From an uncultured Solirubrobacterales bacterium (GTDB taxonomy: Bacteria; Actinomycetota; Thermoleophilia; Solirubrobacterales; 70-9): a stretch of 64,000 nucleotides of DNA. Made by a program: the position numbers and the translations under genes. Location: the NCBI GenBank assembly GCA_963778715.1, contig CAVZVK010000005.1:2698-66697 (forward strand), in the 5' to 3' direction. The notes under the pieces were generated by a model that worked only from the letters and a program-made list of their open reading frames with translations, was not told the origin of the DNA and did no database searches. Shown here piece after piece: positions 8,545-52,577 of this stretch (position 1 is its first letter; each line of letters opens with the position of its first letter).

Positions 8545-9425
8545 GCTTCGGCACTCCCAGCAGCTCGCGCGCCTCGGCGACGCGTGGCGGCGCGGCGGCC
8601 GACGTCCTCGGCCATCTGGCGCGCCTTGGCGATCAGGTCGCCGTTGGAGCTCGCACATCTCGCCGTTCGGCAGGTAGAGGTTGTCCTCGACCCCGGCGCG
8701 GACGTTGCCGCCCAGCACCAGCGAGGCGCCGAGCAGCTTCCACTGGTCGCGGGAGATGCCGATCACCTGCCACTGGTTCGGTCGCCCTCGGCGCCGCCGG
8801 GGATCTGGTCGGACATCAGGGCGACGTTGCGCGGCGTCGGCCGGATGCCGCCGTTGACCCCCATCACCAGCGAGATCTGCAGCGGCGTGCGCTCCAGCAG
8901 GCCCATGTCGATCAGCGGGTCGAGGTTGGCGACGTGGCCGGAGTCGAAGCACTCGTGCTCGGGCTTGATCCCGAGCTCCCGCATCGCGGTGAGGAACTCG
9001 ATGATCGTGTCGAAGCTGTTCTCGAAGACCGCCTTGAAGACGAAGTCCTTGCGCCGCTGGGAGTACTTGGCGTAGTTCATCGAGCTCATGTTGAGCGCGG
9101 CGACGTCGGGCCGCAGCGCCCGCAGGTACTCGATCCGCTTCTCGATCGGGATCCCGATCGCGCCGGTCGAGTAGTTGACGATCACGTCGCCGACCTCGGC
9201 CAGGATCGCCTCGGTGATCGCGCGGAAGTCCTCGATCTCATAGGACGGCGTGCCGTCGGGCTTGCGGGCGTGGATGTGGATCTGCGAGGCGCCCTCGTCG
9301 ACCGCCCGCCGCGCCTCGGCCGCGTACTCCTCCGGCGTGTAGGGGATCGCCGGGCACTGGTCGCGGTTGGCGATCACCCCGCTGATCGAGCAGCTGATGA
9401 CCACCGGGTCGTCGAACGAGCTCAC
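8525..9425 (-). pseudogene. 3-keto-5-aminohexanoate cleavage enzyme family (BKACE/DUF849), about 2 apparent frameshifts
   Basis: GGAGGG lies 7 nt upstream of GTG 9425. The sequence SSFDDPVVISCSISGVIANRDQCPAIPYTPEEYAAEARRAVDEGASQIHIH...[12 protein letters not shown] continues across ORFs 8763..9425 and 7711..8952. TAG at 8525..8527. Confidence 0.7.
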
Positions 9426-9484
9426 TCTTCTCCCTCCTGGGGCGAGTTATCCGTGTATATGACGGGAAAGTCGCCCCGCCGCCG

Positions 9485-11081
9485 TCATACCGGCATCACC
9501 CCGTGGCGCTTCTTGCGGCTTCTCGACGTGCTTGTCTTTCGGCCATGCGCAGGGCCTTGACGATCGTCGGGCGCGTCTCGCGCGGGTCGATGACGTCGTC
9601 GATCACGGCGTTGCCGGCGGCGATGTAGGGGTCGATCTGCTCGCGGACCGCGTTCAGCATCGCCTCGCGGGTCGCCTCCGGGTCGTCGGAGGCCTCGATC
9701 GTCGAGCGGCCGATGATGTTCGACCGCGCCCTCGGCGCCCATCACCGAGATCTCGGCGCCCGGCCAGGCGACGATCAGGTCCGGCTCGTAGGCCTTGCCG
9801 CACATCACGTAGTAGCCGGCGCCGTAGGCCTTGCGCACGACCACGGTCACCTTCGGCACCGTGGCGCGGCTGACCGCGTAGAGCATCTTCGCGCCGTGGC
9901 GGATGATCCCGGCGTGCTCGACCTTGGCGCCGACCATGAAGCCGGGCACGTCCTGGAGGAAGACGAGCGGGATGTTGAAGGCGTCGCAGAGGTTGATGAA
10001 GCGCGCCGCCTTGTCGGCCGAGTCGTTGTCGAGGATGCCGGCCAGCTGCTTGGGCTGGTTGGCGACGATCCCGGCCGGCTGGCCGCCGAAGCGGGCGAAG
10101 CAGGTGATCAGCGTCTTGGCGAACTTCGGCTTGATGTCGAACAACTCGCCGTCGTCGACGATCTCGCGGATCACGTCGTACATGTCGTAGGGCTGGCGCG
10201 AGGAGTCGGGGACGATCTCCATCAGCTTCTCCGACATGCGGTCGTCGGGGTCGGCAGCTCTCGATGCACCGGCGGCTTCTCCTCGCAGTTGGCCGGGAAG
10301 TAGGAGAGGTACTGCTTGACCGCTCGATGCACTCCTCGTCGTCCTTGACCTCGAGGTCGCCGACGCCGGATTTGCGGCAGTGGACCTTGGCGCCGCCGAG
10401 CTCCTCCATCGAGATGTCCTCGCCGGTGACCGCTTTGGTCAGGTGCGGGCCGGCGAGCGCCATCGCGCCCTGGCCGGAGACCATCGGCACGAAGTCGGCG
10501 AGCGCCGGGATGTAGGCGGTGCCGGCCGCGCAGGGGCCCATCATCGCCGCGACCATCGGGATCACGCCCGACATTTCGACCTCCTCGCGGAAGAGGTGGC
10601 CGGAGCCGGCGAAGAGCGAGCCCGCCGCCTCCTGGATGCGGGCGCCGGCCGAGTCGAGCAGCCAGATGAAGGGCATCCGCTTGGAGAGCGCCATCTCGCG
10701 CAGGCGGGTGACCTTGAGCTCGCCGGTCATCCCCATCGAGCCGGCCATCACGGTGAAGTCGTAGGCGGCGACGCAGCAGGGGCGGCCGTCGACGTCGCCC
10801 CAGCCGGTGATCACGCCGTCGGCCGGCGCCTCCTTGCCCTCCATCGCCCGCTGGGCGAAGTGGGGGCGGCCGTGGATGCCCATCTCGACGAAGGTGCCCT
10901 CGTCGACCAGCAGGTCGATCCGCTCGCGGGCGGTCAGCTTGCCGCGCTCGTGCTGCTTGGCGATCTTCTCCTCGCCGCCGCCGAGCTTCGCCTTCTCGCG
11001 CCGCTCGTGCAGCTGCTCGGTCAGCTCGCCCAGCGGGGCCGTGCCCGGCAGCAGGTGCTTGGTCTCCTGATCAGTCGCCAC
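9485..11081 (-). pseudogene. acyl-CoA carboxylase carboxyltransferase (PccB/AccD5-like beta subunit), about 3 apparent frameshifts
   Basis: GTG at 11081. KLTARERIDLLVDEGTFVE, DFTVMAGSMG and AAMMGPCAGTAY-like blocks (ORF 9654..11585), then GIVANQPKQLAGILD...VVVRKAYGAGYYVM. The C-terminal ...KKRHGVMPV is typical of this family (ORF 9485..10237). Confidence 0.8.
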
Positions 11082-11866
11082 TACCGTCCCTTCCACTGCG
11101 GATCGCGTTTCTCGAAGAATGCGCGTGACGCCCTCGACGATGTCCTCGGTCGAGAAGGTGAGCGAGAGCTGCGAGCGCAGGTACTCGAGCGCGTCGTCGA
11201 CCGCCATGTCCTGCTGGCGGTACATCGCGTCGTGGCCGAGCCGCATCAGCACCGGGCTCTTGGAGGCGAGCTTCGTCGCCCAGTCGGCGACCGCGGCGTC
11301 GAACTCGCCGGCCGGGACGACCTTGTTGGCGAGCCCGTACTCGACCGCCTGCTCGGCGCTCAGCCGCTCGCCCAGCAGCATCATCTCGTTGACCTTCTTG
11401 CGCGGGACGTTGCGGTAGATGATCGCCATGATCATGTAGGGGAAGGCGCCGACGTTGATCTCCGGCGTGCCGAAGGTGGCGCCCTCTTTGGCGATCACCA
11501 GGTCGCAGGAGAGGGCGAGGCCCATCCCGCCCGCCAGGACGTGGCCGTTGGCCGCGCAGAGGGAGGGCTTGCCGAGGCGCGGCATCAGCCGGAAAAATTC
11601 GAGGAAGAGGTCGGTGGCGAAGTGTTTGGCGACGAGCGGAACGTCGGCGGCGAAGCCACCCGAGGTCCGCCCCGGCGCAGAAGACTTTGTCGCCCGCGCC
11701 CGGTGAGGACGACCGCGCGCACCTCCTCGGCGTCGCGCGCCGTCTTCATCGCGTCGACCAGCTCGGCCAGCATCTGCCCGGAGAGCATGTTGCGCTTCTC
11801 CGGGTTGTTCAGCGTCACCGTGGCGACGCCGTCGGCGACCTCGTACTTGACGACCTCGTAGTCCAT
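11081..11866 (-). pseudogene. enoyl-CoA hydratase/isomerase (crotonase) family, at least 2 apparent frameshifts
   Basis: MDYEVVKYEVADGVATVTLNNPEKRNML (ATG 11866). Then AANGHVLAGGMGLALSCDLVIA and FGTPEINVG (upper part of ORF 9654..11585). A shifted frame ends RAFFEKRDPQWKGR with TAG at 11081..11083. Confidence 0.8.
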
Positions 11867-11925
11867 CGAGGCGAGACCATAGCCGAACCGCGCTGAAAGT
11901 AGGAAGTGCTACTGTCCACCCGCAC

Positions 11926-11988
11926 GACGTGTCTGAGTTTAGGCCGCCGCATATGGACGGCCCAGAAGATCAGACACCCCCTGCCGAT
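11926..11988. repeat. nested-hairpin element, copy A (outer stem GTGTCTGA/TCAGACAC, inner stem GGCCG/CGGCC)
   Basis: Read directly: GACGTGTCTGAGTTTA-GGCCGccgcatatggaCGGCC-cagaagaTCAGACACCCCC. It lies in the divergent region between the crotonase and ACAD genes. A second copy is at 42525..42580. Confidence 0.6.
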
Positions 11989-12016
11989 CACGAACTGCGA
12001 ACGAGGAGAGAGACCA

Positions 12017-13240
12017 GTGGCGACCGCGACGACCAACGGCTCCAAAGTCATCAAGCCCGACTTCGAGGCGGGCCGCAAGCACTTCATCTTCAGCCAGGAG
12101 CACGAAGACCTGCGCGAGTCGATGCAGTCGTGGGTGAAGAAGGAGCTGTGGCCGCACCGCAACGAGTGGGAGGACACCTACTGGCCGACTCCGACGCGAT
12201 GAAGCGGGCCGGCGAGCTCGGCTTCCTCGGCCTCTGCTTCCCCGAGGAGTACGGCGGCCAGGGCGGCGACTACTTCTACTCGCTGGTCCGCGCCGAGTGC
12301 ATGAGCTACTCCGGCTCCGGCGGCACCAACATGGGCTTCGCCGTGCAGAGCGACATGGTGCTGCCGCCGATCCACCTGCTCGGCACCGAGGAGCAGAAGC
12401 GCCGCTACCTCGAGCCGGGCCTCAAGGGCGAGAAGATCGGCTGCCTCGGGATCACCGAGCCGGGCGCCGGCTCCGACGTCGCCGGCATCCGCACCACGCG
12501 CGATCCGCGACGGCGACGAATACGTGATCAACGGCTCCAAGACCTTCATCACCAACGGCCCCCGCGCCGACTTCATCGTCCTCGTCACCAAGACCGACCC
12601 CGAGCGCCCGCCACGAGGGCATCACGCTCTTCGTCCTCGACCTGCGCGACGAGGAGGGCGAGCACGTGCCCGGCTTCAGCGTCTCGGCCGAGCTGGAGAA
12701 GATGGGAATGCACGCCTCCGACACCGGCGAGCTCTCCTTCGAAGACGTCCGCGTGCCGGCCGACGCCGTGCTCGGCGAAGTCGGCAAGGGCTTCTACCAC
12801 ATCGCCTGGGAGCTCCAGGGCGAGCGGCTGGTCGCCGCCGCCGGCTGCCACGCGGGTGCGGAGCGGATGATCGAGAAGACGCTCGAGTACGCCAAGGAGC
12901 GCGAAGCCTTCGGCCGCCCGATCGGCAAATTCCAGGCGATCCGCCACAAGTTCGCCGAGATGGCGACCAAGACCGAGGCCGCGAAGCAGTTCACCTACGC
13001 GACCGCCTGGCGCTTCGCCAACGGCGAGTACCCGGTGCGCGAGATCACGATGGCCAAGCTCTTCGCCTCCCGCGTCGCCTGCGAGGTCGCCGACGACTGC
13101 GGTCCAGATCCTCGGCGGCTACGGCTACATGAAGGAGTACGAGATCGAGCGCGCCTACCGCGACGTCCGCCTCAACCGGATCGGCGCCGGGCACCGACGA
13201 GGTGATGCTCGACGTGATCGGGCGCTCCTACGGGCTGTAG
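12017..13240 (+). pseudogene. acyl-CoA dehydrogenase (paralog 1), about 5 apparent frameshifts
   Basis: AGGAGAG then GTG 12017. Blocks FLGLCFPEEYGGQGG, KIGCLGITEPGAGSDVAGI, NGSKTFITNG, EREAFGRPIGKFQAIRHKFAEMATK and GGYGYMKEYEIERAYRDVRL are spread over 4 ORFs. TAG at 13238..13240. Confidence 0.85.
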
Positions 13241-13255
13241 AGCGCTGGAAGTCGG

Positions 13256-13435
13256 TCAGGCGTTGGTCGCGATGACCGTGCCGATGGTGGCGAAGATGCC
13301 GAGCATAGTCGCACCCCAGAGCTGGAACATGAGCATGCGCAAATCCCGGATGTCCCGGTCGACGCGCTCGAATCCCGCGTCCACTTTGTGGGCCAGGTCA
13401 TTTAGTCGCTCGTCAGTCCACATCGTTCGCTCCAT
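13256..13435 (-). CDS. small hypothetical protein (59 aa) with a hydrophobic C-terminal segment
   Basis: Internal ATG 13435 of ORF 13256..13600: MERTMWTDERLNDLAHKVDAGFERVDRDIRDLRMLMFQLWGATMLGIFATIGTVIATNA. The codon usage looks protein-like. The upstream part of the ORF overlaps the ACAD2 start. Confidence 0.5.
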   Translation of the reverse strand: MERTMWTDERLNDLAHKVDAGFERVDRDIRDLRMLMFQLWGATMLGIFATIGTVIATNA

Positions 13436-13487
13436 GCTGGCGACGCTAACAGACACCAACGCAGACAACACGCTTCGAGTGTAACGG

Positions 13488-14666
13488 ATGACGGTAATCA
13501 AAGACACAGGACAGCGCGCCACCCTTCCCCCCTTCGGCGAGGAGCACGAGGAGCTGCGGGAGACGGTCAGCCGCTTCGTCGCCAAGGAGATCGCGCCCAA
13601 CGTCGACGAGTGGGAGGAGGCGCGTGAATTCCCCCGCGAGCTCTACGGGCGCTGCGCCGAGCTGGGCTTCCTCGGCCTGAAGTTCCCGGAGGAGTACGGC
13701 GGTCAGGGCGGCACGCATCTGCACGACGCGATCTGGGTCGAAGAGCTGGCGCGCTCCGGCGGCTCCGGCGGCGTCGCCGCCGGGCTCAACGCCCACACCT
13801 CGATCGCGATGCCGCCGATCTTCAACTTCGGCACCGAGGAGCAGAAGCAGCGCTGGCTGGTGCCGGGAATCGCCGGCGAGAAGATCGGCGCGCTGGGGAT
13901 CACCGAGCCGGGCGCCGGCTCCGACGTCGCTGGCATCTCCACCTTCGCCCGCAAGGTCGACGGCGGCTACGTCGTCAACGGCTCCAAGACCTTCATCACC
14001 AACGGCGTCCGCGCCGACTTCCTCGTCTGCGCGGTGAAGACGACGCAGGAGGGCGGCCACGGCGGCATCTCCTTCCTCGTCCTCGAGCGCGAGATGCCCG
14101 GCTACGAGGTGGCGCAGAAGCTGGAGAAGATGGGCTGGCACTCCTCCGACACGGGCGAGCTGGCCTTCACCGACGTCGAGGTGCCCGAGGAGAACCTGCT
14201 CGGCGAGGAGAACGGGGGCTTCAAGCTGATCATGGCCAACTTCGCCTGGGAGCGGCTGCTGATGGCGATCGGCGCCGTCGGCGCGATGCAGCGCCTGATC
14301 GAGCGGACCGTCGAGTACGCCCTCGAGCGCGAAGCCTTCGGCCGCCCCATCGGCAAGTTCCAGGCGATCCGCCACCAGGTCGCCGAGATGGCGACCAAGG
14401 CCGAGACCTCCCGCGCCCTCACCTACAACGCCCTGCGCCTCTTCCACGAAGGCCAGGACTGCATCCAGGACGTGACGATGGCCAAGCTCGTCACCCAGCG
14501 CGCCGTCCTCGAGATAGCCGACCAATCCCTCCAGATCCACGGCGGCTACGGCTACATGCGCGAGTACGGCATAGAGCGAGCCGTCCGCGACGCCCGCCTC
14601 GGCCCAATCGGCGGCGGCACGGACGAGGTAATGAAGGAGATCCTCGGCAAGCTGATGGGGCTGTAG
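13488..14666 (+). CDS. acyl-CoA dehydrogenase (paralog 2), intact
   Basis: 392-aa uninterrupted ORF with FLGLKFPEEYGGQGG, KIGALGITEPGAGSDVAGI, NGSKTFITNG, EREAFGRPIGKFQAIRHQVAEMATK and GGYGYMREYGIERAVRDARL. Confidence 0.93.
   Translation: MTVIKDTGQRATLPPFGEEHEELRETVSRFVAKEIAPNVDEWEEAREFPRELYGRCAELGFLGLKFPEEYGGQGGTHLHDAIWVEELARSGGSGGVAAGLNAHTSIAMPPIFNFGTEEQKQRWLVPGIAGEKIGALGITEPGAGSDVAGISTFARKVDGGYVVNGSKTFITNGVRADFLVCAVKTTQEGGHGGISFLVLEREMPGYEVAQKLEKMGWHSSDTGELAFTDVEVPEENLLGEENGGFKLIMANFAWERLLMAIGAVGAMQRLIERTVEYALEREAFGRPIGKFQAIRHQVAEMATKAETSRALTYNALRLFHEGQDCIQDVTMAKLVTQRAVLEIADQSLQIHGGYGYMREYGIERAVRDARLGPIGGGTDEVMKEILGKLMGL
14631..14662. repeat. left boundary direct repeat (att-like), ATGAAGGAGATCCTCGGCAAGCTGATGGGGCT
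   Basis: Encodes the last residues MKEILGKLMGL of ACAD paralog 2. It matches 18700..18731 with one mismatch. Confidence 0.85.
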
Positions 14667-14713
14667 GGATTAGCAGGGATTTCCCGCTCCTTCTCCCCGT
14701 CGTCCGCATCGGG

Positions 14714-14736
14714 CGGACACGATTCGGACACATCGC
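14714..14736. repeat. internal direct repeat CGGACACGATTCGGACACATCGC (arm-site-like, contains CGGACAC twice)
   Basis: 22/23 identical to 18562..18584. Lies 51 bp inside the left boundary repeat. Confidence 0.75.
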
Positions 14737-14819
14737 TCCGCGCCTGGGCGATCTGATCCTCGGCAGACACGCGCTAGCAGCTATCGAGCACATATCGCTA
14801 CTGTTTCGTGCCCTAGCCC

Positions 14820-15089
14820 ATGTCGCTCGCGTCTGAAAGCGTCCCAACCGCGATGCGCCGCTCCGATCAGCCCCAGCCCGCCCTAGGCAAAGCAATCCGC
14901 CAGCTTCGCCAAAAGCGCGGCGTCACCCAGGAAGACCTCGCCCACGAGGCCGACATCACCACTGGCACCCTCTCCCTGATCGAGCGCGGCCAGGCCAACC
15001 CGACCTGGGGAACCCTCAAGGGCATCGCAGCCGGACTCGGTATTTCGATGGGCGAGCTAGGAAAGCTCGCCGACAAATTCGAGCATTAG
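14820..15089 (+). CDS. XRE/Cro-family helix-turn-helix protein
   Basis: 89-aa ORF. LGKAIRQLRQKRGVTQEDLAHEADITTGTLSLIERGQANPTWGTLKGIAAGLGISMGEL is a classic HTH_3 pattern. An alternative ATG is at 14853. Confidence 0.85.
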   Translation: MSLASESVPTAMRRSDQPQPALGKAIRQLRQKRGVTQEDLAHEADITTGTLSLIERGQANPTWGTLKGIAAGLGISMGELGKLADKFEH

Positions 15090-15173
15090 CTCACTGAAAG
15101 TTTAAGAACTTATCTGTTTACATTCAACTGTGTAAAGTCCCGCTGCGATTCGCCAGGGGTCGGAGGCTCAAAG

Positions 15174-15650
15174 ATGACGGGGTCAGAGGTTTATGTCGGT
15201 ATAAACGTTGCCGGGGGTATCGCTTACCTGGGGGTCTGCCGAGGCAAGCAGCTCGACCTAAGCGATTCTGCCGAAAGCATCGAGCCAAACCGACAACTGG
15301 CGCTGGCAGAGCAGCTAGAGGATTTCCGTGCCCGCCTCGGTCAGGAGTTTCGGCGTCTCGCACCACAAGAAGTCGGGATAGCCCGTACGCGTAAGTTCTC
15401 ACAGTGGCAGTACAAACCAGCCGCGGCACGCTTCGGGCTGGAGGCAGTAGCCATGATGGCAGCCATACAGGAGGGGATCCCCTGCAGCATGGTGGTGCAG
15501 GAGGATGCTGCAAAGGCGGCCCAGGTGCCTGTCACCAAGTTTGCGGAGGCCATGCCTGCCCGATTTGGAATCGATCCAACCCATCACTGGGACAAACGAG
15601 CTCTGGCCTTCGCGACGGCCCTTGCATTGGCGAAGGGCGAAACGAGATGA
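15174..15650 (+). CDS. hypothetical 158-aa protein, possible RuvC/RNase-H-like fold with degenerate catalytic residues
   Basis: GGAGG lies 7 nt upstream of the ATG. N-terminal VYVGINVAGGIAYLGV and later AAARFGLEAVAMMAAIQEGIPCSMV and DKRALAFATALALA resemble the resolvase topology by eye. The stop overlaps the kinase ATG. Confidence 0.55.
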   Translation: MTGSEVYVGINVAGGIAYLGVCRGKQLDLSDSAESIEPNRQLALAEQLEDFRARLGQEFRRLAPQEVGIARTRKFSQWQYKPAAARFGLEAVAMMAAIQEGIPCSMVVQEDAAKAAQVPVTKFAEAMPARFGIDPTHHWDKRALAFATALALAKGETR

Positions 15651-16753
15651 CTGGAGCTCGTACTGAGCTCCGCAAGCTGACACTGCCATATGCCGCCCTG
15701 GAGACGGTTTATCAAGGGGACTGCGAAGTACGGCAATATCGCAACGAGCTAACTGGACAGCTTCAGGTCGGCAAGCGCATAGACGTCCTCGGAATGGAGG
15801 AGGCAGTTGCCTTTCGCGAGGGGGAACTGCTGCAGCAAATTGATCATCAGCACCTTGCCAAGGTGCAAGAGGTCGTTGAGGTGTCTGGCTATCCAGAGCC
15901 AATGCACGTCATCGAGCTGATCATGCCCTGGTATGAGCGGGGAAGTATCTGTGATGCCCTTCTTCGGGGAGAGGAATTCTCAGTGGGAGAGGCAATTACG
16001 CTCATGGCCGGCGGCCTGCTCGGTGTAGCTGAGCTGCACGAGTGTCATGGCATCCTGCATCGCGACCTTAAGTCACCGAACTTCTTTCTCTCCGATGACG
16101 ATCGGTTGTTGGTCGGTGATCTAGGAGCAGCCGCTCCTATGGACACAGATGGTTCGGCGGAGGCCCTGCCAGCGCCACGCCTCTACTCCCCGCCGGAGTC
16201 ACTCACCGTGGGACGACTTGACCGTCGCTCTGAGATTTATCAGTGCGGCCTCGTGCTTCATGAGCTTGTTTCAGGATCCTTCCCGTACGACGATCCGAAG
16301 CTATCGATCGATTCCGTGGCATCGCGGCTGGCAGAGGGAAAGCCAGCACTCCGACCAACCCATTTGATCCACGCTCCTTGGGTACCGCGCGGCCTTCGCT
16401 CAGTTATCAACAAAGCGCTGCAGACAAACCCCGCTGCCCGTTATTCCAGTACGCAACACATGAGTAGGGCGTTGAACCGAGTTACATACGTCGACTGGCG
16501 TCGCATCGTCGACACTCCTGACCGCAAACGATGGGAGGGAACAACGGTCCATCATCCTGGTCGCCGCTTTGCGGTTGAGGCCAAACTCATGCCTCCAAAT
16601 CGCCGTCGCCACAAATCGGCCTGGGCTCTAAGCGGGCTCCAACGCGTGAACCGTTGGCAGCGGATGATTCCCGATGCACCAGCTACAGATCTCGACGGAA
16701 CTCAGGCCACCCACTTCTTCGACCAAATGGTCGTTAGTGCCACCAAACGTTGA
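15647..16753 (+). CDS. Hanks-type Ser/Thr protein kinase (368 aa) with an uncharacterised C-terminal extension of about 100 aa
   Basis: ATGA overlap with the upstream gene. Motifs QVGK43, HRDLKSPN (codons from 16058), GDLG and YSPPE. The Gly-rich loop is degenerate (VYQGDCEV). The upstream 81 codons of ORF 15404..16753 overlap the previous gene and are not used. Confidence 0.85.
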   Translation: MTGARTELRKLTLPYAALETVYQGDCEVRQYRNELTGQLQVGKRIDVLGMEEAVAFREGELLQQIDHQHLAKVQEVVEVSGYPEPMHVIELIMPWYERGSICDALLRGEEFSVGEAITLMAGGLLGVAELHECHGILHRDLKSPNFFLSDDDRLLVGDLGAAAPMDTDGSAEALPAPRLYSPPESLTVGRLDRRSEIYQCGLVLHELVSGSFPYDDPKLSIDSVASRLAEGKPALRPTHLIHAPWVPRGLRSVINKALQTNPAARYSSTQHMSRALNRVTYVDWRRIVDTPDRKRWEGTTVHHPGRRFAVEAKLMPPNRRRHKSAWALSGLQRVNRWQRMIPDAPATDLDGTQATHFFDQMVVSATKR

Positions 16754-17118
16754 GCCGACTGGGTAAGCACGGCGCGTTCGTCTGCAGGGAGATGCTGGAG
16801 CAAGTCCCTGTGTCGCTGCAACCAAGCACTCTGTGCTCGGTAGGACGCTCCGGCACCTTTGCCCTCCGGCTTGATTGCGCCAGCCGCGGCGGCCTCACGA
16901 AGAACTGAACGCAAGCTAACGACCCGCCGGTCGGCCCTGGTCCGGCTCGTTAGAAGTGCTCGAATCGCAGGCGCAAGCCTAGGAATCACGGCAAGTTCGC
17001 CCGCCAACTCCTCGATTGCTCCCTCCAGCGGCCAGCCATCAACTGGAATCCGGCTGATACCGCTAGCGGTCCACAGCAAGCCGACAAGCGACAGCGGGCT
17101 GATCAGCGGCGTCGACAT
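16702..17118 (-). CDS. hypothetical protein (138 aa)
   Basis: Uninterrupted ORF with ATG at 17118 and no motif I recognise. Its 3' end overlaps the kinase 3' end by 52 nt (convergent). It is divergent from the wHTH gene 21 bp away. Confidence 0.5.
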   Translation of the reverse strand: MSTPLISPLSLVGLLWTASGISRIPVDGWPLEGAIEELAGELAVIPRLAPAIRALLTSRTRADRRVVSLRSVLREAAAAGAIKPEGKGAGASYRAQSAWLQRHRDLLQHLPADERAVLTQSAQRLVALTTIWSKKWVA

Positions 17119-17143
17119 TTGTAAGGTTAGACTTTACATTTGT
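17115..17143. promoter_or_regulatory. two ACATTTGT direct repeats 21 bp apart, each overlapping one of two divergent start codons
   Basis: ACATTTGT at 17115..17122 (contains CAT, the ATG of the minus-strand gene) and at 17136..17143 (contains the TTG of the plus-strand gene). AT-rich spacer. Confidence 0.4.
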
Positions 17144-17487
17144 CAGCCGACGGAAAAGCGCGACAGAAACGTGGCGGTCCAAAGCCAACCGACCTCGCTG
17201 ATTGGCTATTTGGCTATGGCCCGAGGCGGAGGTTGCTCGCATGTCTTTGGGGCCCAAAGACGCACCGGGTGATTCCGCCAAAGAAAGGCTTTTCTGCTGC
17301 TCAGCTCGCTGGTATGGCCGGTAAGTCCCGCCCTGCGATTGAGGCGGATATCGCTTCGCTTGAGCGCCTGGGGCTACTCACCCGCAAGCAGATCGGGAAA
17401 CGCGATCGCTTCTTCCCTCGCTCTACCCGGCTGGCCAGAGCAATCAACGCTTTGATCCGCGCGGTTGACGATGCAGTCGGCATCTAA
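17140..17487 (+). CDS. winged-helix (ArsR/MarR-like) DNA-binding protein
   Basis: 115-aa ORF with a TTG start. RRRLLACLWG...FSAAQLAGMAGKSRPAIEADIASLERLGLLTRKQIGKRDRFF fits an H1-H2-H3-wing pattern. Confidence 0.6.
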   Translation: MSADGKARQKRGGPKPTDLADWLFGYGPRRRLLACLWGPKTHRVIPPKKGFSAAQLAGMAGKSRPAIEADIASLERLGLLTRKQIGKRDRFFPRSTRLARAINALIRAVDDAVGI

Positions 17488-17564
17488 TCCGCGTCCCAAA
17501 TCACAGCTCGTGAATGTTCCATCCGAGGGAGCATGTAATCTGTGCCTTGCAAGGTACGGATTTA

Positions 17565-18164
17565 ATGTCTCCACGAATAAAAGATTCCCCACTTCTGACG
17601 AGAAATGAGATCGCTGAGATCAGCGGTGTCTCGATCAATGCTGTGAACAAGGCGCTTGAACAACGGGTCGCAAAGGCGCGGCGACAGCGGGGACGAACAT
17701 TGCTGGCGGCCGATGAGGCGGCGGCGCTGGCGCTGCTCTCGGAACTTCCGATTAGCCTCTCGATCAAGTTCAAACGTGAGGTGCGGAACTGGATCGTCGG
17801 GCGGAACCCCGCCAGAGCGGAGGAGTTCGAGCTTTCGCGAGCCCTGCGAGTTGCAATGACGGAGAACGCCGCCGATGTGGCCAAACGGGCGTTTGACTAC
17901 GTGCGCCTGCGTGAGAGGTACGTCGAGGTCGATCCAGGCAAGAGGGGCGGCACGCCGGTGATCCGAGGGACGCGGGTGCCGGTGCGAACCCTGGCTCAGC
18001 TTGTCGAGGGCGGGGAGAGCCCTAAGGCGCTCAAGGAGGACTACCCGCACATTCCAGAGGAGGCATACGACGTTGCCGTGCTGTGGGCAAAGGGAAATCC
18101 ACGCCGCGGGCGGCCAACCGGACAGCATCGGCTCCAAACGGCGGGTCACGCCCCAACGGCGTGA
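17565..18164 (+). CDS. DUF433-domain protein with an N-terminal HTH-like region (putative antitoxin)
   Basis: ATG at 17565 within ORF 17514..18164. The C-terminal GGTPVIRGTRVPVRTLAQLVEGGESPKALKEDYPHIPEEAYDVAVLWA matches the DUF433 signature as I know it. Confidence 0.7.
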   Translation: MSPRIKDSPLLTRNEIAEISGVSINAVNKALEQRVAKARRQRGRTLLAADEAAALALLSELPISLSIKFKREVRNWIVGRNPARAEEFELSRALRVAMTENAADVAKRAFDYVRLRERYVEVDPGKRGGTPVIRGTRVPVRTLAQLVEGGESPKALKEDYPHIPEEAYDVAVLWAKGNPRRGRPTGQHRLQTAGHAPTA

Positions 18165-18559
18165 AACTCTGGATTGACGAGTGCTTGTCGCCGACTCTTG
18201 TAGCGCGCGCCAATCGTCGCGGATACTGGGCGACCTGCAACCGCGACCGAGATCTGCTCGGCATCGCCGATAAGAACCTGCACGAGCTGGTCATTGACGA
18301 AGAAGCGGTTTTCGTCACGAATGACGAAGCGGATTTCGTCGCGCTCTACAAGAGGGTCGATCTGCACACCGGCCTCCTGATCTTGCCGCAGACCGATACA
18401 CGCGAGTCGCTATGGCGTCTGCTCGATGTCGCGCTCGACTACATCGAGCAGAAGGCCCGCATCGCAGCCGAGACAGCCGCCGAGTGGATGCTAAACAAGC
18501 GGATCGAGGTCGATCCGGGCGGCAAAGCCACCCACAATGATCTACCGGGCAGGGAATAG
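18161..18559 (+). CDS. DUF5615/Mut7-C-like PIN-fold protein (putative toxin)
   Basis: GTG 18161 overlaps the upstream stop (GTGA). KLWIDECLSPTLV...AVFVTNDEADFVAL resembles DUF5615 proteins, which pair with DUF433. Confidence 0.6.
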   Translation: MKLWIDECLSPTLVARANRRGYWATCNRDRDLLGIADKNLHELVIDEEAVFVTNDEADFVALYKRVDLHTGLLILPQTDTRESLWRLLDVALDYIEQKARIAAETAAEWMLNKRIEVDPGGKATHNDLPGRE

Positions 18560-18561
18560 CG

Positions 18562-18584
18562 CGGACACGATCCGGACACATCGC
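18562..18584. repeat. internal direct repeat CGGACACGATCCGGACACATCGC (partner of 14714..14736)
   Basis: 22/23 identical. Lies 115 bp inside the right boundary repeat. It is followed by three CGTGCC motifs at 18651, 18671 and 18681. Confidence 0.75.
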
Positions 18585-18699
18585 CGAGACCACCACCGAT
18601 CACGACCGACAATCGCCCTCATCCCCGAACAAGCTGATTTGCTTGAAATCCGTGCCCTCGGATGATCCCGCGTGCCCCCCCGTGCCATGCTCGGAAGTC

Positions 18700-18731
18700 A
18701 TGAAGGAGATCCTCGGCAAACTGATGGGGCT
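18700..18731. repeat. right boundary direct repeat ATGAAGGAGATCCTCGGCAAACTGATGGGGCT
   Basis: A non-coding relic that would still translate to MKEILGKLMGL followed by TGA. 31/32 identical to 14631..14662. Confidence 0.85.
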
Positions 18732-19466
18732 TTGAAGCCGGTTGCTACCGCCTCGGCCTCACTCCTGATCTGGGTCTGCGCTGCCATGCAGCTGGGCGGG
18801 CCCGCATTCGCCGGGCCGAACAGCCTTCGACCCAGAGGGGATGCGAGCAACGTGCCACGACCACGGATCACGCGGCGGCTGATCCCATTCCCACCCAAGC
18901 GCAAGCGGCAGATGATGGCCTACTCGGAGCGGCACTACGGGGAACACACTTGGCGGCTGCGGCACCCGCGGATGATCGTCGAGCACTGGGCGGAAACGGG
19001 CAGTGCTTCGGCCGTCTACAACACGTTCGCGCCTGACACACCCGATCCGGAGCTGCATGAGCTGCCCAATGTCTGCGCGCATTTCGTCGTCTCGGGGGAC
19101 GGGCGCATCAATCAGCTGGTCTCGACGCGGATTCGCTGCCGGCACACGGTCGGGCTCAACTGGACGGCGATCGGGATCGAGCACACTGGTTTCAGCGACG
19201 GCGAAGTGCTGGGCGATCGGCGGCAGATGCATGCGTCGCTGCGGCTGACGCGATATTTGCGCTGTCGCTTTCAGATCCGGATCCGCAACGTGATCGGCCA
19301 CGCGGAGAGCCTCTCCTCGCCCTACCACCGCGAGCGCGTGCGGAGCCTGCGGACGCAGACGCACGGTGACTGGCGGCATCGGTCGATGCAGACGTACCGG
19401 CGGCAGCTTTGCCATCTTGGCTCCTGCTCAGGCCGAGATGATCGACAGGCCCAGCCCCGCGGCTGA
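18732..19466 (+). CDS. N-acetylmuramoyl-L-alanine amidase (Amidase_2/PGRP-like), probably secreted
   Basis: ORF 18672..19466. Signal-like KPVATASASLLIWVCAAMQLGGPAFA. Then AHFVVSGDGRINQLV, TVGLNWTAIGIEHTG and NVIGHAE. The start is uncertain; TTG 18732 is proposed because upstream codons lie in the island repeat. Confidence 0.65.
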   Translation: MKPVATASASLLIWVCAAMQLGGPAFAGPNSLRPRGDASNVPRPRITRRLIPFPPKRKRQMMAYSERHYGEHTWRLRHPRMIVEHWAETGSASAVYNTFAPDTPDPELHELPNVCAHFVVSGDGRINQLVSTRIRCRHTVGLNWTAIGIEHTGFSDGEVLGDRRQMHASLRLTRYLRCRFQIRIRNVIGHAESLSSPYHRERVRSLRTQTHGDWRHRSMQTYRRQLCHLGSCSGRDDRQAQPRG

Positions 19467-19499
19467 GCCAAGGCTTGGCGGCGACGCCATCTGGGTACC

Positions 19500-20105
19500 G
19501 TGACCCGCATGGAAGAGGTGATCGACGGCGTATTCCACTGGAAGGCGATCCATCCGCGGATCGAAGCCGAGGTGGGCTGTCATTTCGTGCCGGGGTCCGG
19601 CACGCTGATCGACCCGCTGGTACCGGACGAGGGGATCGAGTGGTTCGACGGCCGCGGTGTGCAGCGCGTCGTCCTCTCCACTCGCCACCACCTGCGCCAC
19701 GCACCGCGCTTCGCCGAGCGCTTCGGCTGTCCCATCCTCTGCCACGAGTCGGGCCTCTACGAGTTCGAGGGCGACCCGGACGTCGACGGCTTCGCCTTCG
19801 GCGACCGGCTCGCCGAGGACGTGGTCGCGCTCGAGATGGACTCGATCTCCCCCGACGACACGGTTCTCCAGATCGAAACCGGAGGCGGCGCGCTGCTCTT
19901 CGCCGACAGCCTCATCCACTACGACGCCGTCGGCTTCGTCCCGGACCGATTGATCGGCGACGACCCCGAGGGGGTCAAGCGCAGCATCCGCGCCCGCGCC
20001 GGCGAGCTGCTCCAGGAGCGTTTCGAGCACCTCCTCTTCGCCCATGGCGACCCCCTGCTCGGCGAAGGCCGCGAGGCGCTGCGGGGAATCGCCAGGGGCC
20101 ATTGA
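19500..20105 (+). CDS. hypothetical protein, possible metallo-beta-lactamase-fold
   Basis: 201-aa uninterrupted ORF. VVLSTRHHLRH and LLFAHGDP are only loosely MBL-like, so the family call is weak. Confidence 0.4.
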   Translation: MTRMEEVIDGVFHWKAIHPRIEAEVGCHFVPGSGTLIDPLVPDEGIEWFDGRGVQRVVLSTRHHLRHAPRFAERFGCPILCHESGLYEFEGDPDVDGFAFGDRLAEDVVALEMDSISPDDTVLQIETGGGALLFADSLIHYDAVGFVPDRLIGDDPEGVKRSIRARAGELLQERFEHLLFAHGDPLLGEGREALRGIARGH

Positions 20106-20536
20106 TCTACCTGCTGCGACACGGGGACGCCGAGGACGGCAGCGGCGGCGACGCGGCCCGGCGCCTGACACCGAAGGGAGAGCGGCAGGCCGCAGCCGCA
20201 GGGCAGGCGCTGGATGCGCTCAACGCCGAGATCGACGCCTGCCTGACCAGTCCCAAGCTGCGGGCGGCGGACACTGCCCGGCTCGCCTGCCAGGCACTTG
20301 GCCTAGAGCTCGAGGCCACCGAGGAGCTGCGCGGCGGCCGCTTCGACTCGCTCGTCCTCTCCGCCGGCCGCGGCAACGTCCTCCTCGTCGGCCACGAGCC
20401 CGACTTCTCCGGCGAGGTCGCCCGTCTCACCGGAGCCAACGTGAAGCTGCGCAAGGGCGGCCTGGCGATCGTCGAGGGCAGCACCCTGCTGGCGCTGCTG
20501 CGACCGAAGGACCTCACCCGGATCGCCGCCGGCTGA
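20102..20536 (+). CDS. sixA: phosphohistidine phosphatase SixA-like (histidine phosphatase superfamily)
   Basis: TTG 20102 overlaps the upstream stop. IYLLRHGDAE...RLTPKGERQA...LLVGHEPDFS, in the lower part of ORF 19475..20536. Confidence 0.7.
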   Translation: MIYLLRHGDAEDGSGGDAARRLTPKGERQAAAAGQALDALNAEIDACLTSPKLRAADTARLACQALGLELEATEELRGGRFDSLVLSAGRGNVLLVGHEPDFSGEVARLTGANVKLRKGGLAIVEGSTLLALLRPKDLTRIAAG

Positions 20537-20630
20537 CGGCCGAGGACGTTTGCCGCAGTAGCTGGCATTTCGCCAAGCGTCGAGTAGGGTCGTACTCGAC
20601 CAGTACGCGGCAGGGAGAAAAGAGGGTTGC

Positions 20631-21168
20631 ATGGCCTACGAAATGGAGATCCGGGGAAGTCAGGATCGCGTCAAGATCCGCAGCCCATGGGCGGCGGCGC
20701 TGCTGCCGATCATCACCCTGGGGATCTACCACCTGGTCTGGTGGTACCGGATCAATCGCGAGCTGCGCGACTACGGCAAGGCCAAGGGCTTCGACCTCGG
20801 ACAGAACCCGACCAACTCGGTGCTCGCCCTCTTCCCGGGCGGGCTCATCATCGTCCCCGCCTTGATCACCTACTGGCGCGGCACCAAGCGGGTCATGGGC
20901 GCCTCCAAGGTCGGCGGCCAAGAGCCGCTCAACGGCTGGATCGCGATCCTGCTCTACCTCTTCATCGCACCCGGGCCTCTGGGCCTACATCCAGGTCTCG
21001 CTGAACAGCCTCTGGCAGGCTGAGGCGGACGCGATCGAGGGCCTGCCGGCGCCGCCGGAGCCGAGCGACCAGATGCCGCCGCCGCTCCCCCAGGAGCCGG
21101 CCGCGACCGAGCCGCCCCCGGCGGACCCGCCGCCCGTCGATCCGCCGCCAGCGGGGCCAACAGCCTGA
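20631..21168 (+). pseudogene. DUF4234-type membrane protein with a Pro-rich tail, one apparent frameshift near 20975
   Basis: LLPIITLGIYHLVWWYRINRELRDYG (ORF 20631..21023). A +1 frame continues YIQVSLNSLWQAEADAIEGLPAPPEP... to TGA at 21166..21168. Confidence 0.6.
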
Positions 21169-21178
21169 TCGGAGTCCC

Positions 21179-21598
21179 GTGAAGCAGCGCGTCAACCTGA
21201 TCACCCTCGGAGTGGGCGATCTCGGGCGGGCGCGCCGCTTCTACGAAGCGCTGGGCTGGACGACCGGCGCTGCCGAGGACGACGACGTCGTCTTCTTCCA
21301 AGCCGGCGAGATGATCGTCGCGCTCTGGGACCGCGCTCGCCTCGCCGCGGACAGCTGCGTCGAGGACTCCGGCGGCTGGGGCGGCACGACGCTGGCGCTC
21401 AACCTCGGCTCGCGGCCCGAGGTCGACGCGGTGATCGAGGAGGCCCGCGGCGCCGGCGCGACGATCGGCCGCGAGCCGGCCGAGACCTTCTGGGGTGGCT
21501 ACAGTGGCGTCTTCGTCGACCCCGACGGCAACCCCTGGGAGGTCGCCCACAACCCGCACTGGACGATCACCGAGGACGGCGGCGTCAGACTCTCTTGA
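21179..21598 (+). CDS. VOC/glyoxalase-family protein
   Basis: 139-aa ORF. NLITLGVGDLGRARRFYEALGW...GYSGVFVDPDGNPWEVAHNP. Confidence 0.8.
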   Translation: MKQRVNLITLGVGDLGRARRFYEALGWTTGAAEDDDVVFFQAGEMIVALWDRARLAADSCVEDSGGWGGTTLALNLGSRPEVDAVIEEARGAGATIGREPAETFWGGYSGVFVDPDGNPWEVAHNPHWTITEDGGVRLS

Positions 21599-21599
21599 C

Positions 21600-22389
21600 G
21601 TGGTCAACCGCGTCCACCTCAACCTGATCGACAGCTCACGGCAGCTGTTCGAGCTCGATCCCGACGCCACCGTCGAGGCCGGCCCCGGCTGGGTCTTCGG
21701 CGCCGGCAGCCCTGAGCATCCGGTGATCTCGAACGCGGCCTTCCGCAACGACGATAGCCTTGACGCCGAGGAGTTCGTCGCTCGCGCCAAGAGCTTCTTC
21801 GCCAAACGAGGGCGCGGCTTCAGCGTCTGGGTCCGCGGCGATCAGCCGGAGGACCGCGACCTGCTCGCCGCCGCCGAGGCCGCCGGGCTCCAGTTCGTCT
21901 ACGAGATGCCGGAGATGGTCCTCAAGGCGCCGGTCGACCCACCGCGCCGGGCTGCTGGCGCAGAGATCCGCAGGCTGACCGAGGTCGAGCAGGTCGACGA
22001 CTACTGGGAGATCGCCGCCGCCTCCTACGCCAGCCTCGGCTTCCCGCCCGAGGTCTTCGGCAGCTACGGCAACCGCGCCGGGCTGCTCGGCCGAGAACGT
22101 CGCCGCCTTCCTCGCCTACCTCGACGGCGAGCCGGTCAGCATCGCGATGACGATCGTCAGCCACGGCGTCGCCGGCATCTACTGGGTCGGCAGCCTCGAG
22201 CGGGCGCGCGGCAAGGGGCTCGGCGAGGCGACGACCGCCGCCGCGACCAACGCCGGCTTCGAGCTGGGCGCCGACCTCGCCTCGCTGCAGGCCTCGCCGA
22301 TGGGCAAGCCGATCTACGAGCGCATGGGCTACGAGACCCTCTTCGACTACCGGCTCTATATGTCGGCCCCGCCTTCCACAGATCGCTAG
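21600..22389 (+). pseudogene. GNAT-family N-acetyltransferase, one apparent frameshift near 22090
   Basis: The N-terminal part lies in ORF 21495..23291. The C-terminal part is ORF 22147..22389 with GVAGIYWVGSLERARGKGLGEATTAAATN...YERMGYE. Confidence 0.7.
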
Positions 22390-22409
22390 CCGGCTCTAAC
22401 ATCGAAACC

Positions 22410-23291
22410 GTGCCCCAGGTAGCCGCAGAGAACGAGGAGGCGCTCGAAGCCTGGGACGGCGTCCTCTTCGACCGCTTCCTCCGCTTCCGGGACATCGTCA
22501 CCGACGGCCTCGGCGCCCACGGCGAGGCGGCGCTCGCGGCCCATCCGCCCCGGCCGGGAGAGCGCGTGCTCGACATCGGCTGCGGCTTCGGCGACACCAG
22601 CCGGCGGATCGCCGAGCTGGTAGGCAAGTCGGGCTCGGTGCTCGGCGTCGACGTCGCTCCCCGCTTCATCGAGCTGGCCCAGCAGGAGGCCGAGTGCGCC
22701 GCGCTGGCCAACGTCAGCTTCGATGTCCGCGACGTGCAGGTGACCACGTTCGAGGACCGCTTCGACTACGCCTTCGCTCGCTTCGGCACGATGTTCTTCG
22801 CCAGCCCGGTGGCGGCGATGCGCAACGTGCGCGAGGCGATGACGCCCGGCGGCCGCCTCTGCATCGTCGTCTGGCGGCGCAAGCTCGACAACGAGTGGCT
22901 GCACCGGGCCGAGAAGGTGGTCGACGAGTACCTCGAGGAGCCGGAGGAGACCGACGAGCCCACCTGCGGCCCCGGTCCCTTCTCGATGGCCAACGCCGAC
23001 ACCACCAGCGACATCCTCCAGGGCGCCGGCTTCGTCGACGTGGAGCTGCGCCGCTGCGACATCCCGATCAAGATCGGGAACGACCTCGACCACGCGGTCG
23101 AGTTCGCCACCGCGATCGGCCCAGCAGGCGAGTTGATCCGCCTTGTCGGCGACGAAGCGGAGCAGATCAGGCCCACGATCGAGGCCTCCCTGCGCGAGGC
23201 CCTGGCCGAGTTCGTCGGCCCCGACGGCGTCATCGCCGACGCTTCGACCTGGATCGTCAGCGCTAGAGCGCCTCAAGCCGCGTCCGCATAG
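22410..23291 (+). CDS. class I SAM-dependent methyltransferase
   Basis: GTG 22410 within ORF 21495..23291. SAM motif RVLDIGCGFGDTS, then GGRLCIVVW. Confidence 0.8.
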   Translation: MPQVAAENEEALEAWDGVLFDRFLRFRDIVTDGLGAHGEAALAAHPPRPGERVLDIGCGFGDTSRRIAELVGKSGSVLGVDVAPRFIELAQQEAECAALANVSFDVRDVQVTTFEDRFDYAFARFGTMFFASPVAAMRNVREAMTPGGRLCIVVWRRKLDNEWLHRAEKVVDEYLEEPEETDEPTCGPGPFSMANADTTSDILQGAGFVDVELRRCDIPIKIGNDLDHAVEFATAIGPAGELIRLVGDEAEQIRPTIEASLREALAEFVGPDGVIADASTWIVSARAPQAASA

Positions 23292-23308
23292 CTGACTGGC
23301 CAGTCAGC
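23291..23308. promoter_or_regulatory. perfect 18-bp palindrome GCTGACTGGCCAGTCAGC
   Basis: Read directly. It starts on the last base of the methyltransferase stop codon, 63 bp upstream of the next gene. Operator or loop-less terminator stem. Confidence 0.35.
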
Positions 23309-23370
23309 CAGCGCCAGATCCATATAGCCTCCCGGGCCGACTTTACGAACTAGAAGGAGAACGCAGACTG

Positions 23371-24201: not shown

Positions 24202-24683
24202 TGTCCCAGGCGGCAGGTGACAGGCGTCCGCCCCGCTACCTCGACGTGGCGGACCGGATCTGGCCTGTCACCCGTCGCTTCATGGGCCTGCACACCGCTC
24301 TCTACAAGGCGAGCGGCGGGCGGCTCGGCCACCAGGTGCCCGGGGGCCCGGGCAAGATGCTGCTGCTCGACCACGTCGGGGCGAAGAGCGGCACCAAGCG
24401 CACCTCGCCGCTGCTCTACTTCAGGGACGGCGAGGACCTCGTGGTCGTCGCCTCCAAGGGCGGCTTCCCCAAGCACCCGGCCTGGTTCCACAACCTGATG
24501 GCCAACCCCGACACGACGGTGCAGGTCGGCCCGCAGCACAGCAAGGTCCACGCCCGCGTCGCCAAGCCCGAGGAGCGCGAGCGCCTCTGGAAGCTGGCCG
24601 TCAAGGCATACCGCGGCTACGCCGACTACCAGGCCCGCAGCAAGGGCCGCGAAATCCCGCTGGTCATCCTCGAGCCGCGCTGA
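24201..24683 (+). CDS. deazaflavin(F420)-dependent nitroreductase-family protein (DUF385 type)
   Basis: ATG 24201 overlaps the upstream TGA. LLLDHVGAKSGTKRTSPLLYFRDGEDLVVVASKGGFPKHPAWFHNLMANP, in the lower part of ORF 23907..24683. Confidence 0.8.
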   Translation: MSQAAGDRRPPRYLDVADRIWPVTRRFMGLHTALYKASGGRLGHQVPGGPGKMLLLDHVGAKSGTKRTSPLLYFRDGEDLVVVASKGGFPKHPAWFHNLMANPDTTVQVGPQHSKVHARVAKPEERERLWKLAVKAYRGYADYQARSKGREIPLVILEPR

Positions 24684-24686
24684 GAG

Positions 24687-25641: not shown

Positions 25642-25688
25642 GCGCGCGCAAGCCTATATACGGACGCTCGCCGGTAACCTGAGCGGCG

Positions 25689-52561: not shown

Positions 52562-52577
52562 ATCGGGGCGCCCGGAT
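52562..52577. repeat. distal att-like repeat ATCGGGGCGCCCGGAT (copy of the tRNA-Pro 3' end)
   Basis: Exact 16-nt match to 55218..55233, read directly. Confidence 0.8.

Follow-up and report, generated by a model that had tools for sequence, protein, structure and literature searches.

A probable integrase-deleted genomic island bounded by att sites at the 3' end of an acyl-CoA dehydrogenase gene in an uncultured Solirubrobacterales bacterium

The DNA analyzed here, called the window throughout, is a stretch of 64,000 nucleotides of contig CAVZVK010000005.1 from an uncultured Solirubrobacterales bacterium (GenBank assembly GCA_963778715.1, positions 2,698 to 66,697 of the forward strand). It carries an intact acyl-CoA dehydrogenase (ACAD) gene, an island of about 4 kb (14663-18699) at the 3' end of that gene, and, beyond the island, an N-acetylmuramoyl-L-alanine amidase gene. 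The features at the target gene and at the two ends of the island are listed below; int+ denotes relatives that retain an integrase gene.

13488-14666, plus strand: ACAD, the target gene, intact (Pfam Acyl-CoA_dh_N/M/1)
14625-14662, plus strand: attL core (B-O-P'), a 38-nt direct repeat whose 32-mer is 14631-14662
14663-14775, minus strand: P' arm, the 3' stump of a tyrosine integrase gene (tblastn, blastn, and alignments)
14664-14666, plus strand: TAG stop codon of ACAD, derived from the element (empty sites end in TGA, occupied attL sites in GTAG)
14775/14776, no strand: deletion junction (alignment with int+ relatives)
18561-18699, plus strand: P arm, 75-87% identical across about 22 elements
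18694-18735, plus strand: attR core (P-O-B') and the displaced native end of ACAD, with the native TGA at 18733-18735

The 32-mer ATGAAGGAGATCCTCGGCAAGCTGATGGGGCT occupies 14631-14662, and a second copy with one G-to-A change (31/32) lies at 18700-18731, exactly as a first-pass annotation, made from the sequence alone, had reported. These are the only two sites in the window that match the 32-mer at ≤3 mismatches, and two matches were reached in 0/100 dinucleotide-preserving shuffles. The 32-mer sits within a longer direct repeat of 38 nt (14625-14662 and 18694-18731, 35/38 identical). The last 11 codons of ACAD fall inside this core, and the attR copy reads ATG AAG GAG ATC CTC GGC AAA CTG ATG GGG CTT TGA, that is, MKEILGKLMGL plus a stop, in agreement with the earlier translation. 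The lower G+C that had been noted by eye was borne out by calculation: G+C is 0.599 for 14663-18699, compared with 0.684 (8000-14630) and 0.701 (18732-26000) in the flanks, and the minimum over 518 windows of equal size from the rest of the 64 kb is 0.647 (mean 0.700, sd 0.021).

An ACAD protein query retrieved 80 loci (L001-L080) from species-representative metagenome-assembled genomes of Solirubrobacterales/Thermoleophilia, with orthologues 90-96% identical to the window ACAD. The DNA 3' of the ACAD stop is hypervariable, the first syntenic anchor being reached after 54 nt to at least 8.5 kb. At least three loci (L002, L018, and L020) are empty sites of the kind that the first-pass annotation proposed to look for, with the ACAD stop followed 54-63 nt later by the amidase domain. 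Empty sites share the core and terminate …GGGGTTGTGA; occupied attL sites read …GGGGYTGTAG and run on into element DNA. The present stop codon of ACAD is therefore supplied by the element, and the native end with its TGA is found at attR. The upstream copy had been taken as the native end of the gene; it does encode the last 11 residues, but the native 3' end is the attR copy with its TGA, and attL ends on the TAG of the element. Nor is the attR copy "attached to nothing", as was first thought, since the TTG start of the downstream amidase at 18732, in frame with the Amidase_2 domain, overlaps its stop codon. In the empty site of L020 the equivalent amidase GTG likewise overlaps the ACAD TGA (L020:11176-11179; GTGA there, TTGA in the window), which indicates that ACAD and the amidase natively overlap by 4 nt. 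The insertion appears to have split this overlapping gene pair, duplicating ~35 nt upstream of the amidase start. All insertions at the ACAD att site part ACAD from the amidase, and the attR core keeps ~35 nt 5' of the amidase start.

The autonomous members of this family were recognized among the same 80 loci. A full-length tyrosine integrase of ~390 aa, encoded on the minus strand, abuts the ACAD end in 16 of them (79-100% identity), and a 17th locus, L037, has a frameshifted integrase at this position. The integrase matches Pfam Phage_integrase (PF00589, 7.9e-17), SAM_3, and Phage_int_M as well as phrog_1 (1.2e-69), and is ~30% identical to integrases of Gordonia and Mycobacterium phages. 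The gene upstream of int encodes an excisionase (HTH_17, 2.5e-11; TIGR01764, 30.9 bits against a cut-off of 28.8), and xis is present beside full-length int wherever the contig allows. The order of the intact backbone is attL, int (minus), xis (minus), a 94-aa open reading frame (ORF; minus), an XRE-family regulator gene (plus), variable cargo, P arm, and attR. A second (or third) core lies downstream in about 21 loci, always in the same orientation and with the same GGACAC-box geometry, and the core repeats delimit elements of 0.9-9.8 kb. The cargo of the relatives includes an AAA_13/SMC-like ATPase, a UvrD helicase, a SNF2 helicase with a methyltransferase, a DUF4143 ATPase, Fic, DUF4062, and VapBC-type pairs, which is the usual content of defense islands. 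Searches for capsid, terminase, primase, and packaging-hijack genes found none; the PHROGs matches are to integrase, excisionase, repressor-type HTH, kinase, and one family of unknown function.

In the window, only the 3' end of the integrase gene is left. The 113-nt stump at 14663-14775 corresponds to about codons 353-390 of the 427-codon integrase ORF of the relatives, or the C-terminal ~38 residues. With the L015 integrase as tblastn query, residues 350-427 alone were matched in the window, and a blastn search aligned 14601-14775 with the 3' end of int in 16 loci. Every catalytic residue of the integrase is gone, the catalytic Tyr (YAHVF) among them, as is everything upstream of codon ~353. 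Window blocks 14601-14775 and 14774-15076, the second of which aligns with the region upstream of the XRE gene in int+ relatives, map 2247-2432 nt apart in L004, L013, L022, L033, L051, and L056, and the alignment places the junction after …GACACGCGCT. The 2.25-2.43 kb missing relative to these int+ loci comprises int codons 1 to ~352, xis, and the one 94-aa ORF. The first-pass claim that the island is without any recombinase stands insofar as no recombinase or transfer domain was detected by domain and profile searches in any of the seven island ORFs; it overlooked the integrase stump. In the relatives, a conserved plus-strand ORF of 360-422 aa beside attL, called on third-position G+C and with no Pfam match, was considered as a novel recombinase and rejected, being the antisense frame of the minus-strand integrase.

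The same cargo island was found in L081-L085 (JGI and Logan contigs) at 94.5% nucleotide identity to the window. These copies keep integrase residues 230-427 but are without the first 78 nt of the XRE gene, and no single deletion converts either form into the other. A third junction, with no XRE gene, is seen in the L087 copy (84% identity), and a fourth in the second unit of L037. These different truncations indicate that integrase loss is recurrent in the family. An alternative route is that the window island arrived already integrase-less by homologous recombination between conserved flanks, for example through transformation or transduction from a relative. Lateral exchange of this kind would be compatible with the synonymous divergence between the window and L081, which is lower for the island genes (dS 0.09-0.16) than for the adjacent ACAD (dS 0.235). 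The window junction, however, was found in no other retrieved locus, and the closest copies (L081-L085 and L087) differ in junction, as independent decay of int+ copies predicts. We regard such an arrival as unlikely, and it would alter only the route and not the nature of the element.

The att sites have an architecture typical of lambda-type recombination. A second direct repeat, GCGGACACGATYCGGACACATCGC, lies at 14713-14736 (82 nt inside attL) and at 18561-18584 (139 nt before the attR core), with 23/24 positions identical, and each copy contains two GGACAC boxes at 11-nt spacing. The putative arm-type boxes are GGACACGATTCGGACACATC in the P' arm (14715-14734) and GGACACGATCCGGACACATC in the P arm (18563-18582), the latter accompanied by conserved GATCAC, GAACARGCTSATTTGC, and CCGTGCCATGCTCGG boxes. 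The GGACACRATYCGGACACATC boxes are invariant on both arms in about 22 elements, and in the roughly 21 loci with a second core the GGACAC boxes lie at core+82 and core-139. Of the positions invariant in int+ relatives, the window keeps 88/90 in the P arm plus core and 85/86 in the core plus P', and its attL and attR look intact and near consensus. Homology between elements stops sharply left of the P-arm GGACAC box, which suggests a functional attP of about 250-290 bp. The attL and attR cores also co-vary locus by locus (AAATTG in both cores of L004 and L054; GGGAAGGCG in both of L077), as expected if one integration made each pair, and the right flank of the window, …GGGGCTTTGAAGCCGGTT, agrees with the corresponding sequence in the empty site of L020, …GGGGTTGTGAAGCCCGTT. 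The empty sites, the matching right flank, and the co-varying cores together uphold the earlier proposal of site-specific integration into the ACAD 3' end with restoration of the reading frame.

In 14 int+ elements the integrase ORF stays open up to the att core, and in the integrated state it continues for ~37 codons into ACAD antisense. In attP reconstructed from the 11 elements with both att sites (L003, L004, L013, L015, L022, L033, L051, L054, L059, L060, and L077), the ORF extends for ~33 codons within the P arm, as far as a conserved TGA in the GTGATC box that all 11 have in common. This extension across attP was considered as coding sequence and rejected: pairwise differences by codon position were 289/464/486, which is not a coding pattern, and conservation of the extension is better explained by binding sites at the DNA level. 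A similar overlap is shown by the serine integrase of the Dehalococcoides ssrA islands, whose ORF also extends into the direct repeat (PMC3146451).

Taken together, these data make it very probable that 14663-18699 is an integrase-deleted genomic island of a lambda-type (tyrosine integrase plus excisionase) family that occupies the 3' end of ACAD. The converse scheme, in which the 4 kb is ancestral, nothing was inserted, and the shorter relatives arose by deletion between chance repeats, has nothing in its favor beyond logical possibility. The stretch from ACAD to the anchor (54 nt to >8.5 kb) has different content in almost all relatives, the G+C of the segment (0.599) is below that of the lowest comparable window (0.647), and an integrase stump and conserved attP arms are present, so that we give this scheme practically no credence.

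Several of the relatives carry tandem units. Three core copies are present in L051 and in L081 and five in L094, and L015 and L037 also carry tandem units; L051, L037, L015, and L094 have arrays of mixed int+ and integrase-less composition. Wherever an integrase is present in an array, it lies in the ACAD-proximal unit. The arrays fit repeated integration at the ACAD-proximal site, with older units being pushed downstream and decaying. Units of 0.87-1.1 kb between cores occur at L081:13525-14431, L029:11144-12046, and L094:6277-10580; these very small units contain little beyond one toxin-antitoxin-like pair (PIN_3 with a 78-aa ORF, or DUF433 with DUF5615) and a P arm, and hardly any of the P' arm is left.

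Arrays of up to five cores with an integrase in the first unit only, some of whose units are 0.87-1.1 kb with one toxin-antitoxin pair (L029, L081, L094, and L065), would also be expected of an integron-like platform, on which a resident integrase captures promoterless cassettes made of cargo and a ~170-nt site (P arm plus core). Against this, the integrase stumps are graded (the window, the L081 group, L087, L035, L062, and the second unit of L037 with 27 nt of P') and form a deletion continuum, and the integrase scores far below the cut-offs of the integron models (TIGR02249, 27.1 bits against 265; NF011946, 21.1 against 435). As single-stranded DNA, neither strand of 18600-18735 folds better than shuffled sequences (z -0.14 and +0.21), with no attC-like hairpin, and an excisionase and arm-type repeats are hallmarks of lambda-type systems. 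An integron-like platform is, in our view, highly unlikely. Side observations bear on the extent of the hotspot. In many of the L001-L080 relatives, 0.3-8 kb of unrelated DNA with no detectable second core separates ACAD from the first syntenic gene, and the downstream "host" genes (amidase, a 201-aa protein, and a SixA-like phosphatase) are themselves variably present, which suggests that the hotspot is larger and older than the recognizable elements.

The integrase-deleted island has att direct repeats that derive from site-specific integration, has lost its own integration genes, and has int+ relatives at the same att site. With near-consensus att sites kept and the integration genes lost, it fits the definition of a cis-mobilizable element (CIME). 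The first-pass annotation had offered "decayed remnant" and "cis-mobilizable element" as alternatives; both were right, and they are the same thing, a deletion derivative of the int/xis family.

We propose the following history. The family targets the last ~35 nt of one particular ACAD gene in Solirubrobacterales. In an intact attP, a version of the ACAD 3' end (ATGAAGGAGATCCTCGGCAAGCTGATGGGGYTGT) is joined to a TAG belonging to the element, and two pairs of GGACAC boxes at 11-nt spacing flank it ~140 nt upstream and ~85 nt downstream. Judging from the anatomy of the occupied sites, recombination at the core would leave ACAD intact at attL and displace the native 3' end and the amidase start to attR. 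After integration, a single deletion of ~2.3 kb removed int codons 1 to ~352, xis, and the small ORF, leaving the 113-nt stump with the P' arm boxes. The island is no longer capable of excising itself, and any movement would depend on a related int+/xis+ element as the source of the proteins. The most plausible rescue would be an int+/xis+ element integrating in tandem at the ACAD site, as in the relatives.

Some observations weigh against this scheme. A hidden Markov model (HMM) of 14 family integrases, searched against all 462 stop-to-stop ORFs of ≥80 aa in the window, gave nothing below E = 0.69, so the window offers no integrase that could act in trans, with the limit that a single-family HMM could miss a very distant recombinase and that serine recombinases and transposases were not screened window-wide. 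An exact-pattern scan of metagenome contigs for the P-O-P' junction returned two contigs, both of them tandem arrays, and thus neither an excision product nor a free circle, although the strictness of the pattern makes this a weak negative. Replication, relaxase, and FtsK-like transfer genes were found neither in the window ORFs nor among 20 large ORFs of int+ relatives. Integrase binding at the putative arm-type boxes is predicted on the strength of their conservation and geometry. Any present-day mobility is hypothetical, and the island may have become fixed.

The cargo between the deletion junction and the P arm consists of the following features.

14820-15089, plus strand: XRE-family regulator, a conserved backbone gene (Pfam HTH_3, 5e-14)
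15118-15135, no strand: inverted repeat TTACA-N8-TGTAA in an AT-rich spacer upstream of p158; region conserved in L087
15174-15650, plus strand: p158, a RuvC-fold protein; its stop overlaps the kinase start (ATGA)
15647-16753, plus strand: Ser/Thr protein kinase (Pfam Pkinase, 3e-25)
16702-17118, minus strand: p138, a small convergent ORF overlapping the kinase 3' end; conserved third module member
17120-17138, no strand: inverted repeat TGTAA-N9-TTACA between the divergent p138 and winged-helix genes
17140-17487, plus strand: small winged-helix-like (wHTH) protein; start uncertain (TTG 17140 or GTG 17269)
17565-18164, plus strand: DUF433 protein, putative antitoxin (Pfam DUF433, 4.9e-15)
18161-18559, plus strand: DUF5615/PIN-like protein, putative toxin (Pfam DUF5615, 4.7e-12; PIN_10, 0.011)

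The seven ORFs listed by the first-pass annotation are real genes: four have clear Pfam matches, p158 is supported by its structure, and two small ORFs by ratios of nonsynonymous to synonymous substitution (dN/dS) of 0.13-0.26. The island cargo is under purifying selection, with dN/dS of 0.07-0.26 for all seven genes between the window and L081 (wHTH 0.13; p138 0.26) and of 0.10-0.15 between the window and L087 for p158, the kinase, and p138 (p138 0.15). The XRE gene is ~90% identical in nucleotide sequence to those of L004, L013, L022, L033, L051, and L056, and in intact relatives it is oriented divergently from xis-int. The wHTH protein has weak HTH_11 and PDC-M05A matches, and JGI calls a 72-aa product in L081. 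The 64 kb hold only two TTTACA hexamers, one in each of the two inverted repeats. These repeats are likely to be a shared operator or promoter element for the cargo module, a role that we consider putative.

No Pfam, NCBIfam, PADLOC, or PHROG model matched p158. Its AlphaFold2 model has a predicted local distance difference test score of 95.7, and in a Foldseek search against the PDB the top 12 matches were all RuvC (template modeling score 0.72-0.78; E down to 4.6e-10), which confirms the first-pass description of the protein as RuvC-like. Given the genuine RuvC (RNase H-like) fold of p158, and given that transposases occur among the RNase H-fold enzymes, it could be supposed that the island is still autonomous, with p158 serving as recombinase or resolvase in place of the integrase. 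The RuvC catalytic tetrad (D7, E66, D138, and D141 in E. coli numbering), mapped onto p158 by secondary-structure position rather than by residue-level superposition, is not conserved in a 50-sequence alignment of the p158 family: the D7 equivalent is H/N, the E66 equivalent is H/E/R, the D138 and D141 equivalents are variable, and no acidic column is nearly invariant. The nearly invariant positions are G9, G15, R54, W78, A83, R86, W139, R142, A145, and A149. Homologues of p158 are, moreover, always paired with a kinase and a p138-like ORF, even in L090, an island with its own integrase and excisionase, and among the 80 ACAD-site loci p158 accompanies this cargo type only, yet the att sites are common to all. 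We therefore consider a recombinase role for p158 extremely improbable; the lack of conserved RuvC carboxylates across the family points instead to a partner of the kinase, and the island is best read, as above, as integrase-deleted.

The p158 family has 112 representatives in a library of 1.84 billion proteins. In every context examined with a downstream gene on the contig (L081-L084, the L086-L087 copies, L088, L089, L090, L092, and one further contig), a kinase of ~356-368 aa overlaps or abuts the stop of the p158 homologue. Against PADLOC, the window kinase matched mad6 (7.7e-32) and PD-T4-6 (3.6e-26), and its domain resembles those of defense kinases. No PADLOC, Pfam, NCBIfam, or PHROG model matched p138. 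Its homologues in L092 (E 1e-18) and L090 (E 2.5e-11) are placed as in the window, convergent with the kinase and overlapping its 3' end; the same module is found at L090:6001-7867 and L092:151-2119. L090 is an unrelated island with its own tyrosine integrase, excisionase, Dcm-type methylase, and HATPase protein. A small wHTH gene usually follows the module. A literature search on RuvC-kinase defense systems returned nothing relevant.

The RuvC-fold/kinase/p138 module is a candidate defense or abortive-infection system. A further and frankly speculative reading, which we think possible but would not favor, is that the operon, in which the RuvC-fold protein is translationally coupled to the kinase, is a previously undescribed anti-phage or abortive-infection system and the ACAD 3' end an exchange locus for modules that are delivered by int/xis, stripped of their integrase, and accumulated in tandem. 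It draws on the constant gene linkage in the contexts examined, on the 112 representatives, and on the defense-like neighbors.

At the attR end, the GTG start of the DUF5615 gene overlaps the DUF433 stop (GTGA), and the DUF433/DUF5615 pair recurs at the ACAD hotspot in L015, L025, L043, L076, and L094. As a putative toxin-antitoxin pair beside attR, it may stabilize the island.

Elsewhere in the window, a second small integrase-less island lies at 52562-55233. It is bounded by an exact 16-nt direct repeat, ATCGGGGCGCCCGGAT, at 52562-52577 and 55218-55233, a pair of matches that no shuffled sequence gave; the copy at 55218-55233 forms the 3' end of a tRNA-Pro(CGG) gene (55218-55293, minus strand). 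The enclosed 2.66 kb has a lower G+C (~0.63-0.64). Within it are a gene for a MazF/PemK toxin (54612-54938, minus strand; 6e-12), an 81-aa ORF upstream of that gene, and several small ORFs that match no family.

The ACAD 3' end is thus a single-gene hotspot in an uncultured order of soil actinobacteria, where minimal int/xis islands repeatedly bring in defense-like and toxin-antitoxin cargo, lose their integrase through independent deletions, and stack in arrays. For annotation, the lesson is that where an island has att sites and seems to lack a recombinase, a 3' remnant of the recombinase gene and the arm sites may still be visible, and the RuvC-fold/kinase/p138 module provides a testable candidate defense system. 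The pattern of CIMEs and accretion is already known from streptococci and Dehalococcoides; no new mechanism is involved here, and the element is of an ordinary kind in a little-studied lineage.

Among known systems, the actinomycete integrative and conjugative elements (AICEs) of the pSAM2 type integrate at tRNA genes in Actinomycetota and carry RepSA replication and FtsK-like transfer genes. The ACAD family shares with them the phylum and an int-xis module whose phage-type tyrosine integrase abuts the att site; unlike AICEs, it showed no replication or FtsK-like genes in the relatives' ORFs scanned. The lambdoid phage 21 and e14 integrate at the 3' end of icd in E. coli, where they substitute the 3' end, leave the gene intact, and displace the native end; they are (defective) prophages with a substitute segment of ~165 nt. 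The ACAD family resembles them in its tyrosine integrase and in substituting the 3' end of a metabolic gene, but the substitute segment is shorter and the ORFs scanned include no phage structural genes.

The ssrA islands of Dehalococcoides, about half of which have no integration module and have been interpreted as CIMEs (PMC3146451), are likewise tandem small islands downstream of one gene, bounded by repeats of the target 3' end, with the integration module on the reverse strand and adjoining attL. They use a large serine recombinase, a tmRNA target, and a 20-bp repeat (PMC3146451), whereas the ACAD family has a tyrosine integrase with Xis, lambda-like arm-type repeats, a protein-coding target, and a core of ~34-38 nt. 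The other close parallel is with the CIMEs of the ICESt1/ICESt3 type at the 3' end of fda in Streptococcus thermophilus (Pavlovic et al., 2004; reviewed in PMC5704250), for which a scheme of deletion and accretion has been described (PMC5704250). The present element differs in its host (Thermoleophilia/Solirubrobacterales) and in parental elements of 3.6-9.8 kb with no conjugation module in the ORFs scanned, and its cis-mobilization is something that we infer. It shares with the streptococcal CIMEs a site at the 3' end of a protein gene, attL and attR flanks, deletion of the integration genes, autonomous relatives at the same site, and tandem accretion with int+ elements.

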